The notes: generated by a model not told the origin, from the sequence alone. 35,336 bases of DNA from a virus (UHGV-0373725); one strand, 5' to 3'. Positions 18,289 through 33,918 are shown, counted from the first letter of the stretch. Translations and numbers: made by a program.

Positions 18289-18304
18289 GGTCGGGATTCC
18301 GACC
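18289..18304 (+). promoter_or_regulatory. Conserved late element GGTCGGGATTCCGACC, copy 1 (upstream of the capsid gene)
   Basis: 16-nt palindrome (GGTCGG/CCGACC arms); flanks identical to copy 3 (ttGGTCGGGATTCCGACCGC). Confidence 0.6.
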
Positions 18305-18454
18305 GCGCACCTCGATAACAATCACTCCATAACCAGCCCGGCGGGGACGCCGGATACCTGATTTCTCCCGCAATGCGCCAGCGCCAACCGCATTGTGCAG
18401 ATTTGGGCCGGGAAACCGACACCCCGCAGGCGATTTTTTACTGGAGTGATTTTT

Positions 18455-19360
18455 ATGTCATTTGATGCAAACAAGAACATGATCACCGCTGCGTTTGTTA
18501 CGCAGTTTCATGATTCTTTCGAAATTGCTGCACAGCAAAAGGATTCGCGCCTGCAAGCGGCTGTCCATGACCGTGGCAGCATCACCGGTGCGTCGTTCAC
18601 CATCAACGATATGGGTACCATTGAGATGAACCAGATCACCACGCGTTTCGGTGATACCGTCTGGGATGTTCCGGAAGCCGGTACCCGTAATGCGCTGATG
18701 GCCGACTACGGCGTTTTCGTCCCGGTCGAGAAACGCGACCTGCGCAAGCTGATTGCCGACCCGCAGGGGCCGTATTTGCAGCTCACCCTGTCCGCCGCCA
18801 ACCGCAAAAAAGACGATGTAATTTACCGCGCGCTGCTCGATGCGGTACTGCGTAAGACTGAGAACAACGGCGCGTATGCATCCGTTACCCTCCCGGCCTC
18901 GCAGAAAATCGTTGCTGGCGGTACTGGCATGACCAAAGCCAAACTGATCGCAGCAAAAGCGATGTTCCGCCGTAACGAATGTGACGAGCAGAACGGCGAA
19001 GAGCTGTACATGACGTACAACGCCGACATGCTGACGCAGATCCTCAGCGATACCACGCTGACCAGCGCCGACTTTATGGCGGTGAAAATGCTTCAGGAAG
19101 GTTCGGTGTCGTCTAAATGGCTGGGCTTTAACTGGCTGGCATACGAGAAGCTGGATTCTGCCACTGCCGAAAACGTCACCACCAAAACCGCCGCCGCCTG
19201 GTGTAAGTCCGCTGTGCATTTCGGTACCGGCGCTGAGTACAACGTCGATATCGGCCCGCGTCGCGATAAAAATAACACCATCCAGATTTCCGTTGATGCG
19301 TCCTATGGCGCTGGCCGCGCCAACGAGAAAAAAGTCGTTGCCATCGATTTTGTAGCATAA
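18455..19360 (+). CDS. Major capsid protein (by position and size)
   Basis: 301 aa from ATG with GGAG Shine-Dalgarno; follows the scaffold gene and is bracketed by terminators as T7 gene 10 is; sequence not obviously T7 gp10-like. Confidence 0.6.
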   Translation: MSFDANKNMITAAFVTQFHDSFEIAAQQKDSRLQAAVHDRGSITGASFTINDMGTIEMNQITTRFGDTVWDVPEAGTRNALMADYGVFVPVEKRDLRKLIADPQGPYLQLTLSAANRKKDDVIYRALLDAVLRKTENNGAYASVTLPASQKIVAGGTGMTKAKLIAAKAMFRRNECDEQNGEELYMTYNADMLTQILSDTTLTSADFMAVKMLQEGSVSSKWLGFNWLAYEKLDSATAENVTTKTAAAWCKSAVHFGTGAEYNVDIGPRRDKNNTIQISVDASYGAGRANEKKVVAIDFVA

Positions 19361-19376
19361 AGCCGCTGGTACCTTT

Positions 19377-19404
19377 GCCGGGGGATCCCTCCCGGCCTTT
19401 TTTC
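19377..19404 (+). terminator. Intrinsic terminator immediately after the capsid gene
   Basis: GCCGGG-ggatccct-CCCGGC followed by CTTTTTT. Confidence 0.6.
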
Positions 19405-19419
19405 ATCTGAGGTAAGGCT

Positions 19420-31078: not shown

Positions 31079-31095
31079 CCGCCGGAGTTCCTCGT

Positions 31096-33615
31096 ATGTC
31101 GGTACCGAACCAGACACCCTATAACATCTATACCGCCAACGGGCTGACGACTGTCTTTGCCTATGAGTTTTACCTGATCAGCGCCAGCGATATTCAGGTC
31201 ACAATCAACGGCAACGAAGTAACGTCCGGCTATACAGTGTCTGGTGTGGGTAATACTGGCGGTGGCGAAGTTACTTTTCTGACCGCGCCGGCCAATGGCG
31301 CTACAGTCATTTTTGAACGTGTAACGCCGACTTACAGGCTCACTGATTACCAGGACAACGGCGACCTGCTGGCCGATACAGTTAACAAAGATTTTGACCG
31401 TCTCTGGATGGCTATTCAGCGCGCGTTTATTTATCTCGGAGTGGCCCTAAGTCGCCCGCTGTTCGGCGGTGGACCTTTCAACGCTAACGGCTACCGGATA
31501 GCAAATCTGGCCGATCCAGTTAACGATCAGGATGCAGCTACTAAAAAATTTGTAATTGAAAATGGAAAAATTAATCTAGCTCGTACTCTACGCGTTCCGG
31601 AGTCTAGCATCACACCGTTACCTTCCATTGCAGAACGAAAAAATAAAATCGTTGCAATGGATAATAATGGCAATCCATTGATGGTATTGCCTTCGAGTGG
31701 AAGTGCAGCAGATGTAATGATTGAGTATGCCAAACCGACAGGTAGCGGGCATATAGGGGTTCTTACTGGAGGCACCGTTGAAGATGCAATAAAATACGTA
31801 ACCCCTGAAATGATAAGGATTAATGGTGAAAGATATATTCACGGCATCACTGCTGATGCAACTAAATTTCTACAGGCAGCTATAGATTACGGAAAAGCTA
31901 ATAACCTTCCGGTATATTTAACTAAAATGTATCCGTGCATATCTTCACCGATAGAGTTTAATTTGCCATTCGACGATGGGACTGTATACCCAGGGTGGAT
32001 AGGGAACGGTGATTCAAATATTGCTCCTGAAATACCAGTTAAGGCAAAAGCAGCACTGCGTGTTTATGATGATTCAATGATTGTTGGTGAAAACCAACAC
32101 AATTGTGGGATTATTGGTAATTTTTCAAAAACTGCGGGACCATGGGATCATACATCTTCCATGGGTCTATACATCGCAGGTGACAGCGGACCAGATCAAT
32201 ACATAAAGTATCACCTTTCTGATTTCAGGATTAGCGGATTCTTTATTGGGCAATGGGTAGACGGGACTGTAAACCGCTGTGTAGAAAATAATATGATGTA
32301 CTCAGGGTGTGCCATTCCTGCTTGTTATCAAGGATCTGATTCTCTGGCGCAAACTGGGCTGACATTATATTGGTATAATATTACAGGCCCTGTTTTTGGC
32401 GGGCGCTGGCTAACGAGAAATCATGCATACGCGTCTCAGTACCTTCCGCCGTACCCGGCATCAGATATTCATCGGGCGGGATGGAATGATTCGTACCATG
32501 TAGACAAGTTTCATTATTATGGTGATACCGGCATGGACTGGACACATCCAGCATATGCCGCTCTTGACACTTGGTTTGATACGTATGTTTTCAAGTCTGC
32601 AAACTGCTTGCCTACGGCCAGCGGTGGTCGGTTGTCAAATAATCAGCAGAATGGGGTTTACCCAGTTGATACCTATAGAGGTATAGCTGGGCGCGCAAGA
32701 ACTATTATTTCACTTCCGGGAAGGGAGATATTGCATTGCAATATTGGTGAGGCTAAAGTGCTGTGGTCTCCAAGAACGCCATTCTACCACTCTGCTCAAT
32801 TCGTTGACGGATTTAAATCATATGTTGGTAACAGTAAAATAAGGACTCTTATACTGGAAAGGGTAGGAATCATCAAGTATGGCCTTGGTGATGTTGCTGG
32901 AAATAGATTTAATGTTAATAATGTTGATCCCTACGAACCATCTCTTTCAACATTTCCAGCGATGGCAACAAGAGGAAATATTTTCGCCCTTGATATTGTA
33001 AAAGGTGGCGCGGTTCAGGCTGCCCCAGTTAATGAATTTAACGGCACAAGAATCGGTGCCGGTGAGAATATAGTTGCTCAAAGAAAGCTTGGAGATAATT
33101 CAAACTATCGTCTTTTCGGTCTTCAGGAGTTAAACGGAACAAATTTATCCGATAAGTATGTTTTTAATCGAAATGATGCCTATATGCCGCCAATAGCTTT
33201 TCCCGGTGGTAATGCTGCTCAGTTTAAGTATCTTTATGGCACATTCGCACCAACTATTACAATTGGCGGCGCAAGCGTAATACCATCATCCATTATTGGA
33301 ATTTACCGTCGGTTTGGTGATGTTGTTCGTTGCGATATAAGGGTCAGATCAACCTCTTTACTGGTTAGCACTGCGGGCGCCATAGTAATTAGTGGTCTTC
33401 CTTTTACAGCCGCTTCTATACAGGAGGGTGGGTCTAAAGGAAGCATAATTCTTAGTACGGCTACAGGGGTTTTAGTTATGCCGCTTGTTCCTGCTGGGAC
33501 AAATCAAATGACGATTATTAAATCGTCAGCCCAAGAAATATATTCTCAAGCAGCTGGTACTTTTGATTTCACTCTCCAGTGTACTTTTGATTATGTTGTT
33601 CCTTTTAATTCATGA
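31096..33615 (+). CDS. Tailspike / tail fibre with T7 gp17-like N-terminal adaptor domain and a divergent AT-rich C-terminal receptor-binding domain
   Basis: N-terminal ~150 aa align with T7 gp17 (ANGYRIANLADPVNDQDAATKKFV versus T7 ARGRRIVNLANAVDDRDAVPFGQL); GC content drops from about position 31500. Confidence 0.8.
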   Translation: MSVPNQTPYNIYTANGLTTVFAYEFYLISASDIQVTINGNEVTSGYTVSGVGNTGGGEVTFLTAPANGATVIFERVTPTYRLTDYQDNGDLLADTVNKDFDRLWMAIQRAFIYLGVALSRPLFGGGPFNANGYRIANLADPVNDQDAATKKFVIENGKINLARTLRVPESSITPLPSIAERKNKIVAMDNNGNPLMVLPSSGSAADVMIEYAKPTGSGHIGVLTGGTVEDAIKYVTPEMIRINGERYIHGITADATKFLQAAIDYGKANNLPVYLTKMYPCISSPIEFNLPFDDGTVYPGWIGNGDSNIAPEIPVKAKAALRVYDDSMIVGENQHNCGIIGNFSKTAGPWDHTSSMGLYIAGDSGPDQYIKYHLSDFRISGFFIGQWVDGTVNRCVENNMMYSGCAIPACYQGSDSLAQTGLTLYWYNITGPVFGGRWLTRNHAYASQYLPPYPASDIHRAGWNDSYHVDKFHYYGDTGMDWTHPAYAALDTWFDTYVFKSANCLPTASGGRLSNNQQNGVYPVDTYRGIAGRARTIISLPGREILHCNIGEAKVLWSPRTPFYHSAQFVDGFKSYVGNSKIRTLILERVGIIKYGLGDVAGNRFNVNNVDPYEPSLSTFPAMATRGNIFALDIVKGGAVQAAPVNEFNGTRIGAGENIVAQRKLGDNSNYRLFGLQELNGTNLSDKYVFNRNDAYMPPIAFPGGNAAQFKYLYGTFAPTITIGGASVIPSSIIGIYRRFGDVVRCDIRVRSTSLLVSTAGAIVISGLPFTAASIQEGGSKGSIILSTATGVLVMPLVPAGTNQMTIIKSSAQEIYSQAAGTFDFTLQCTFDYVVPFNS

Positions 33616-33622
33616 GGCAAAT

Positions 33623-33892
33623 ATGACTTTCAGAGTGACGCAGACTATAGGGAAATCTATAGCATACCCAACGCTAGGTGTATGGATGCCACCAGAAGAT
33701 ACTTCGATTGAGGTTGAATACCAGGCTGTATCGTTAATATCGCTAAATAATGGAACAGCGACTGTTTCATTTAAAGTTAGCATTGATGGTTGTCTTTCCA
33801 GTGGGGAGCTTACCCATTCTTTTGTCTACTCTGGGTCTGGAAGCCCTCTTGAAGAGGCAGAGGAATCACTTAAAAGCAAACTCGTAATATAG
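33623..33892 (+). CDS. Hypothetical AT-rich small protein (89 aa) downstream of the tailspike
   Basis: ATG with GAGG Shine-Dalgarno; no signal peptide; composition matches the tailspike C-terminal cassette. Confidence 0.45.
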   Translation: MTFRVTQTIGKSIAYPTLGVWMPPEDTSIEVEYQAVSLISLNNGTATVSFKVSIDGCLSSGELTHSFVYSGSGSPLEEAEESLKSKLVI

Positions 33893-33902
33893 AATTTCAT
33901 TT

Positions 33903-33918
33903 AGTCAGGATTCCGACC
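33903..33918 (+). promoter_or_regulatory. Conserved late element AGTCAGGATTCCGACC, copy 4 (upstream of the lysis cassette)
   Basis: Same core and flank as copy 2. Confidence 0.6.

Follow-up and report, generated by a model that had tools for sequence, protein, structure and literature searches.

A number of well-characterized activators function at promoters that carry a −10 element and no −35 element. PhoB (which acts at pho boxes), CII of phage lambda and MotA of phage T4 belong to this group, and each uses a site located approximately 10 to 12 base pairs (bp) upstream of the −10 element. The sites of the late-gene activators Mor and C of phage Mu, Ogr of P2 and Lpa of P1 lie at approximately −43, −55 and −22, respectively. 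Herein, we describe a palindromic element of 15 to 16 bp that recurs ahead of the late genes of prophage UHGV-0373725, whose sequence of 35,336 nucleotides (nt) is called the window below. We consider it fairly probable that the element defines five late promoters (P0 to P4) that are used by host RNA polymerase carrying sigma70 and are activated by HTH98, a protein of 98 amino acids with a helix-turn-helix (HTH) fold. We favour this reading because the element is separated from a −10-like hexamer by a fixed spacing of 12 nt, is conserved at syntenic places in related phages, and is constantly paired with the gene for this HTH protein.

The proposed promoters resemble those served by PhoB, CII and MotA in having a −10 element without a −35 element, a site that spans the −35 region and, as we propose, one small factor for several promoters. 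HTH98 additionally recalls lambda CII, a phage HTH protein of approximately 97 amino acids. CII recognizes the sequence TTGC-N6-TTGC (PMC2629481), and the sites of both PhoB and CII are direct repeats while that of MotA is a single box, whereas the element described here is an inverted repeat. Moreover, CII controls lysogeny rather than late genes, MotA requires AsiA and no such partner was seen in the prophage, and HTH98 gave no sequence-family match to CII, PhoB or MotA in Pfam (none to Phage_CII at E values up to 1).

The restriction-modification controller (C) proteins C.AhdI, C.BclI and C.Kpn2I, which are HTH proteins of the Xre fold with approximately 80 to 100 amino acids, are among the closest solved structures to the HTH98 model. 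As dimers, C proteins occupy palindromes that adjoin or overlap the −35 region, and they activate a sigma70 promoter that has almost no activity of its own (PMC2275141). However, neither the C-box sequence nor the paired operators at −44 and −29 are present here, where a single 16-bp site is centred at approximately −32.5. The operators of C proteins lie upstream of their own genes, which are found next to a restriction gene. In contrast, the first site in the prophage is located downstream of the HTH98 gene with no evident autoregulatory loop, there is no restriction gene, and the putative regulon consists of five phage promoters.

The arrangement also resembles that of Mor/C, of P2 Ogr and P4 Delta, and of Lpa, in that a small early or middle phage protein would activate several late promoters that have a −10 element, no −35 element and a conserved, often symmetric upstream element, although the centre of the element near −32.5 differs from the site positions of these activators. 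Searches of Pfam, PHROGs and NCBIfam with HTH98, with the 149-residue protein encoded behind P0 (p149) and with the other window open reading frames (ORFs) gave no hit to the Mor/C, Ogr/Delta or lambda Q families. Ogr is a zinc finger protein, whereas the sole zinc-ribbon protein of the window is not conserved with the element. T7-type promoters are likewise conserved sequences of approximately 20 nt with an A/T-rich 5′ part located ahead of late genes, but the prophage has no gene for a single-subunit RNA polymerase, and downstream of its element, where T7-type promoters have a conserved initiation region, there is a spacer of variable sequence and then a sigma70-type −10 hexamer. Conservation ends with the 15-mer, and thus there is no contiguous promoter of approximately 20 nt that extends into an initiation site. 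Finally, the lambdoid early region and the location of the HTH98 gene in the position of Q, as the last early gene before the late genes, are reminiscent of lambda Q and PR′. The prophage differs from lambda in having no Q protein, in carrying five dispersed sites rather than one late promoter, and in a layout that suggests re-initiation after terminators rather than read-through.

By analogy with these systems, the putative regulon appears functionally similar to known activator-dependent late promoters and to activators that replace the −35 contact, and in this respect it is only moderately surprising. Its most unusual feature is that phages from two classes of Proteobacteria share a nearly invariant DNA site. 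Literature searches on the motif, on Yersinia phage YeP4 and on the late promoters of BPP-1 revealed no description of the element, and the HTH98 family is likewise undescribed in the libraries searched. Similarly, we found no description of late-gene timing in temperate podophages with T7/BPP-1-like virions and no phage RNA polymerase, for which we offer a proposal comprising one regulator gene, a 16-bp site, five promoters and their predicted start sites. If the proposal is confirmed, the system could be used as a compact switch in several proteobacterial orders, with no output unless its activator is present, and the element would provide a simple sequence signature that marks the late transcription units of such prophages.

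A repeated element with promoter-like anatomy

The window contains a complete temperate prophage of approximately 35 kb and 52% G+C that spans from an integrase gene to the lysis genes. Its early region is lambdoid (CI-like repressor, P22-type Cro, RepO and DnaB), its virion module is similar to those of T7 and BPP-1 (portal, Bbp19-like protein, scaffold, capsid, tail tube proteins A and B, and internal virion proteins), and its right end carries terL, the tailspike gene and a holin-endolysin cassette. Near homologues of its proteins are found in Klebsiella and Raoultella. Prophages of this kind, which are temperate podophages with T7/BPP-1-like virions and no phage RNA polymerase, are common in Klebsiella, Escherichia coli, Yersinia, Serratia, Bordetella and Burkholderia.

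Exact matches to GTCRGGATTCCGACC occur at four places on the plus strand (copies 1 to 4), compared with a mean of 0.06 matches in shuffled sequences, none of which reached six. The additional hits on the minus strand merely reflect the palindrome of copies 1 and 3. When the preceding G or A is included, the matches become 16-mers that begin at 18289, 29067, 31000 and 33903, and these positions (ahead of the capsid gene, ahead of the small ORF that precedes terL, within the terL 3′ end and ahead of the holin gene) are correctly given in the initial annotation. Its description of four plus-strand copies restricted to the late region holds for the exact matches, but it missed a fifth, degenerate copy (copy 0, GTCGGGAAACTGACC) within the 3′ end of the HTH98 gene and just before the p149 ORF (14410-14859). 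A perfect copy occupies the syntenic place in the related prophage L003. Copies 1 and 3 share 20 contiguous bases, rather than the 22 originally reported, and copies 2 and 4 do share a stretch, which extends over 18 bases. The palindrome that had been noted is perfect in copies 1 and 3 only (GGTCGG-GATT-CCGACC), whereas copies 2 and 4 have an A at position 4, and the general form of 15 to 16 bp can be written GGTCRG-GAWN-CYGACC.

Exactly 12 bases separate each of the five copies from a downstream hexamer whose second position is A and whose sixth is T (Table 1). When the window was scanned for a composite of the element (up to three mismatches) and nAnnnT at +12, exactly five sites emerged, all on the plus strand and all ahead of blocks of late genes, compared with 0.08 sites in shuffled sequences. 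An exact-match scan of IMG/VR yielded many contigs of approximately 35 kb with two to five copies each, from which 165 unique flanks were analysed. Downstream of the element, these flanks carry information only at positions 29 (A, 1.31 bits), 32 (A, 0.84 bits) and 33 (T, 1.19 bits), which correspond to positions 2, 5 and 6 of a sigma70-type −10 hexamer. The combination of A2, A5 and T6 is the signature of −10 elements of the sigma70 family. The spacer of 12 nt is almost devoid of information, and the element is preceded by an A/T-rich pentamer (A at −4, T at −1 and R at 0). The hexamer nAnnAT was present at the fixed spacing in 90 of 90 instances from contigs with two to five copies, and in just 13 of 29 instances from single-copy contigs, a class in which many chance matches are to be expected.

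Setting the hexamer at −12 to −7 places the element at approximately −39 to −25, with its centre near −32.5, and the predicted start sites then fall between 14 and approximately 120 nt before the next start codon. No −35-like hexamer was found at a spacing of 16 to 18 bp, where the bases read GGATTC, and a scan for consensus sigma70 promoters identified none at the element sites or before the late genes. The plus-strand promoters have no extended −10 and possess only weak −10 hexamers. The element replaces the missing −35 hexamer in a promoter layout of the sigma70 type. When compared by eye with the consensus sequences, the sites did not fit promoters for sigmaE or sigma32.

Window ORFs scanned with Pfam and PHROGs gave no match to a single-subunit RNA polymerase, a sigma factor or a Q antiterminator, and these are likewise missing from the syntenic E. 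coli prophage L002, which is flanked by tRNA-Leu and yecA. A minus-strand ORF of 727 amino acids that was considered as a hidden RNA polymerase was rejected, as it corresponds to a PHROG exonuclease. The earlier observation that the phage lacks a T7-type RNA polymerase holds for the window, which extends from the integrase to the lysis genes. The accompanying suggestion of a late promoter or activator site for a different system is favoured by the fixed spacing to the −10 hexamer, by conservation and by the pairing with an HTH gene. We consider the host sigma70 holoenzyme, rather than an unrecognized phage polymerase, to be the enzyme most likely to use these promoters.

The fixed two-block layout does resemble that of a sigma factor promoter, and the element plus hexamer could be read directly by an alternative or unrecognized sigma-like factor or polymerase, encoded by phage or host, for which the element would be an extended −35. 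Many window ORFs have no known function, and HTH98 exhibits faint, sub-threshold similarity to sigma70 region 4. We nevertheless regard this explanation as quite improbable. No scanned ORF matched sigma region 2 or an RNA polymerase domain, HTH98 is a single Xre-type domain of 98 amino acids, and the two halves of the element vary symmetrically and independently, which suggests a dimer rather than a sigma factor.

Table 1. Positions in the window of the element copies, the predicted promoter parts and neighbouring features.
Feature	Position	Strand	Proposed role or unit	Basis or remark
HTH98 gene	14095..14391	+	98-residue HTH protein, proposed late activator	Last gene of rightward early operon
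Element copy 0	14357..14371	+	Proposed P0 (p149, small ORF, portal, scaffold, gp49-like gene)	GTCGGGAAACTGACC; fixed spacing
−10-like hexamer of P0, CACAAT	14384..14389	+	Predicted start ~14396
Element copy 1	18290..18304	+	Proposed P1 (capsid)	Exact match, syntenic conservation
−10-like hexamer of P1, AACAAT	18317..18322	+	Predicted start ~18329
Element copy 2	29068..29082	+	Proposed P2 (small ORF/terS and terL)	Exact match, syntenic conservation
−10-like hexamer of P2, CATCAT	29095..29100	+	Predicted start ~29107
Element copy 3	31001..31015	+	Proposed P3 (tailspike), in terL codons Val-Gly-Ile-Pro-Thr	80/80 terL-homology loci
−10-like hexamer of P3, GAACAT	31028..31033	+	Predicted start ~31040
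Element copy 4	33904..33918	+	Proposed P4 (holin, endolysin, spanin)	Exact match, syntenic conservation
−10-like hexamer of P4, TACCCT	33931..33936	+	Predicted start ~33943
Terminator-like hairpin and T-run	14328..14346	+	Directly before copy 0	Terminator scan
Intrinsic terminator	18256..18282	+	Directly before copy 1	Terminator scan
Intrinsic terminator, strong	19377..19396	+	Directly after capsid gene	Terminator scan
Integrase gene	185-1201	−	Left end of prophage

Conservation of the element and constraint on its DNA sequence

Relatives of the prophage combine one late module with either of two unrelated early modules, which are lambdoid or encode a DNA polymerase and a VapE primase. L002 has a lambdoid early module (RepO/DnaB) and is integrated at tRNA-Leu, L003 has an early module with DNA polymerase A and VapE primase and is integrated at dusA, and YeP4 also carries a module with DNA polymerase and VapE primase. 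Two small genes, for HTH98 and p149, accompany the late module in these relatives. The initial annotation had named absence of the element from syntenic relatives as a result that would refute its reading; the element is in fact conserved there at the same syntenic places, regardless of which early module is present. A comparison of 14095-35336 with L002, L003 and L001 shows the HTH98 gene and the entire late module joined to unrelated early or replication modules at differing integration sites.

Copy 3, located 95 nt ahead of the tailspike ATG, lies inside the 3′ end of terL. A sample of 80 terL loci with 66 unique 3′ ends was retrieved by protein similarity and is thus independent of the motif. 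The composite site is present at the homologous place in all 80 loci, and the codons GTC, GGG, ATT, CCG and ACC exhibit no synonymous variation among the 66 unique sequences; the entropy of nearby four-fold degenerate codons in these sequences is 1.2 to 1.95 bits. Amino acid replacements leave the DNA signal intact, both at the centre of the element (Ile to Lys via ATT to AAA) and at the −10 of P3 (His to Asp or Asn via CAT to GAT or AAT, with the A and T of the hexamer preserved). Copy 3 is under DNA-level constraint within the terL coding sequence, and the locus would provide an example of a promoter preserved inside a terminase gene. A subgroup comprising L151-L164 and similar loci carries the variant GTCGGGAAACCGACC in terL and has no copy with two or fewer mismatches at the P2 position upstream of terS. 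Members of this subgroup may have a different regulon or may use a more divergent P2 site.

Palindromes of this size can also be read as RNA or DNA hairpins, which could serve as processing sites, stabilizers, antitermination signals or hairpin promoters of the N4 type. Copies 0, 1 and 3 can indeed form hairpins of 7 to 11 bp with predicted stabilities of −11 to −14 kcal/mol, but copies 2 and 4 reach only −2.1 kcal/mol, which is no better than shuffled sequences. The symmetry-related positions 4 (G or A) and 11 (C or T) occur in all four combinations, with A4/C11 being common, such that the A at position 4 is mostly uncompensated. A hairpin would also leave the −10 hexamer at its fixed distance unexplained, no N4-type polymerase is present, and Rfam contains no family that matches the element. 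We therefore judge a hairpin function to be very unlikely. The half-sites GGTCRG and CYGACC, which lie one helical turn apart, vary independently, and this pattern is consistent with a symmetric dimer that binds duplex DNA rather than with base pairing.

HTH98 as the candidate regulator

The initial annotation named two candidate regulators, of which the HTH protein (HTH98) is favoured by our analysis. The other, a zinc-ribbon protein (11780-12118), was found by tblastn in the window only and in none of the relatives with the element, and it was rejected. HTH98 is conserved in all relatives regardless of their early module. Clustering at 90% identity divides its family into at least 182 clusters, which come from Enterobacterales, Bordetella, Achromobacter, Burkholderia, Pseudomonas and other groups and are without exception named 'hypothetical'; our proposal, if true, would assign them a function. 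The family has no Pfam or NCBIfam assignment; the score of HTH98 against Pfam HTH_3 (16.8 bits) is under the cut-off of 23, and a sequence search of the PDB returned nothing significant. Faint TerS hits were also seen, and we considered whether a TerS-like HTH protein might bind the element as a packaging (pac) site. Five dispersed copies, each with a −10 hexamer at fixed spacing, do not fit this possibility.

An AlphaFold2 model of HTH98 has a confident core (residues 10-70, predicted local distance difference test score above 90) with an HTH fold of the lambda-repressor/Xre type, a bundle of four to five helices. Foldseek matched this model, with a probability close to certainty, to P22 c2, CapH, HipB, SinR, C.BclI, C.Kpn2I and C.AhdI. 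On the basis of the model, HTH98 can be placed in the Xre or lambda-repressor-like HTH superfamily. Among its fold neighbours, P22 c2, SinR and the restriction-modification controllers bind palindromes as dimers. The best-conserved segment of the family is the predicted recognition helix and the loop that follows it (K/R-S/T-T-L-I-G-W/Y-K-x-G-A-E-P-R-H).

The linkage between gene and element extends well beyond the enteric bacteria. In both Enterobacterales and high-GC phages, the first copy is found at the HTH98 stop codon or within 60 nt of it. Ten of ten high-GC loci, retrieved by HTH98 homology alone, carry a copy 3 to 60 nt past the stop codon, which reads GTCGGGATTCCGACC or GACGGGAATCCGACA and has the same 12-nt spacing to GATACT. 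A second copy is located before their capsid gene, behind a terminator. The HTH98 proteins of these phages are approximately 30% identical to that of the window, and identity ranges overall from 25 to 40%. More distant homologues, namely gp01 of BcepC6B and a protein of Acinetobacter phage TPWB-05, have a different recognition helix and occur without the element. HTH98 is the best candidate for the regulator of the element.

In the mechanism that we propose, each promoter would consist of a short A/T-rich stretch, the palindrome of 15 to 16 bp, 12 variable bases and a weak −10 hexamer (nAnnAT). HTH98 would appear as the final product of the early rightward operon, bind as a dimer to the two half-sites, and recruit or stabilize the sigma70 RNA polymerase of the host at promoters with no activity of their own. 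Late units would then begin behind terminators, with P0 serving p149, portal and scaffold, P1 the capsid gene onward, P2 the terminase genes, P3 the tailspike gene and P4 the lysis genes. We infer the binding and the activation from the anatomy, the linkage and the predicted fold described above.

Several considerations weigh against this assignment. We found no start-site, binding or expression result in the literature for any member of the HTH98 family. A dimer centred near −32.5 could act as a repressor by analogy with C.AhdI, whose site centred at −44 activates and whose site centred at −29 represses (PMC2275141), and thus position alone does not settle the sign of regulation. PHROGs labels the family 'transcriptional repressor', although this is a label and not a test. 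The 15-mer is nearly invariant even though the HTH98 proteins share only 25 to 40% identity, which is unusual for a regulator and its operator and could point to a more conserved partner. Lastly, p149-like proteins are also syntenic with P0.

The first of these considerations to bear on the sign of regulation leads to the possibility that the element is an operator through which HTH98 represses overlapping promoters, thereby delaying or limiting late transcription in the manner of a promoter-proximal C-box. In addition to the repressive C.AhdI site near −30 (PMC2275141) and the PHROGs label, a minus-strand sigma70-like promoter overlaps copy 2. However, the plus-strand promoters lack a −35 and an extended −10 and have weak −10 hexamers, such that they should be near silent and offer little to repress. 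Furthermore, the ORFs scanned include no match to another late activator, sigma factor, Q protein or RNA polymerase, and a repressor of all late units encoded by the last early gene lacks an evident temporal logic. We consider an operator of this kind to be improbable.

The constancy of the site, in turn, invites two other explanations. HTH98 could be a portable substitute for sigma region 4 and its −35 contact, acting alone or with a second phage protein in a manner similar to T4 MotA and AsiA. Such a role would make one invariant code of 15 bases usable by RNA polymerases from Enterobacterales to Burkholderiales, and would explain both the near-constant element in the face of HTH98 divergence to 25 to 40% identity and the joining of an HTH98 and late-module cassette to unrelated early modules. 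We regard this version as doubtful. Alternatively, the promoters might be laid out as described but respond to a cognate factor other than HTH98, which could be another phage protein, such as p149 acting by positive feedback, or a host protein that is itself conserved. A 15-mer that hardly varies between distant hosts would fit a very conserved partner, p149 is encoded directly behind P0 in all enteric relatives, and the protein encoded at the corresponding position of a high-GC phage (L124, 10321-10833) has a C-terminal tail like that of p149 (AP.L...GW.VP). Yet p149 is very poorly conserved outside Enterobacterales and barely recognizable in the high-GC relatives, its N-terminal 44 residues are disordered and no DNA-binding fold or family was recognized in it, and, being itself expressed from P0, it could not set the cascade off. 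HTH98, by comparison, combines a recognition helix that is conserved with the closest linkage to the element. A factor other than HTH98 thus seems unlikely to us, and p149, for which only a low-confidence model was obtained, is not supported as the regulator. The p149 family itself includes 951 clusters, all named 'hypothetical', whose members share a conserved MxRPKKxxExPGQE motif at the N-terminus and an invariant LTEHGWHVPG at the C-terminus, with a disordered acidic linker and a helical core between them.

Terminators and neighbouring genes

The terminator predicted directly before copy 1 (Table 1) bears out the earlier placement of this copy right behind an intrinsic terminator, and a comparable hairpin before copy 0 probably marks the end of early transcription. 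The capsid gene is flanked by P1 and a strong terminator, an arrangement also known from gene 10 of T7. The positions of the terminators, directly ahead of P0 and P1 and behind the capsid gene, are those expected if transcription re-initiates there, and the terminators would separate the transcription units.

Two further signals are found near copy 2. A sigma70-like promoter (CTGACT-16-TAAAAT, 29045-29072) for a minus-strand ORF of 144 amino acids overlaps the left half of the element, and because of this overlap, the late activator site and the divergent promoter could interfere with each other. The ORF in question (28542-28976) is situated between the last internal-virion gene and the terminase genes, and has a similar gene in L002 and none in L003. 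In addition, a hairpin (AGCCC...GGGCT) with a T-run occupies 29101-29129, the interval that separates the P2 −10 from the ATG at 29130. Because the predicted P2 start coincides with the 3′ edge of the 5′ arm of this hairpin, read-through transcripts could terminate there while transcripts initiated at P2 would be unable to form the stem.

A gene of the N4 gp49/Sf6 gene 66 family (17819-18235) is inserted between the scaffold gene and the capsid gene, ahead of the terminator that precedes P1. It is missing in L003 and YeP4, and fragments of it match 'Gp49 family' genes of many unrelated E. coli prophages, and it looks like a moron. The early region includes two HNH endonuclease genes (11150-11767 and 13147-13644), a NinB/Orf gene (12561-13157) and a gene for a Ref-type RecA-dependent nuclease (13538-13939). 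Lastly, a GNAT acetyltransferase-like gene (21974-22426) is embedded amid the tail-tube and internal-virion genes, and is conserved in L002, L003 and Acinetobacter phage TPWB-05.

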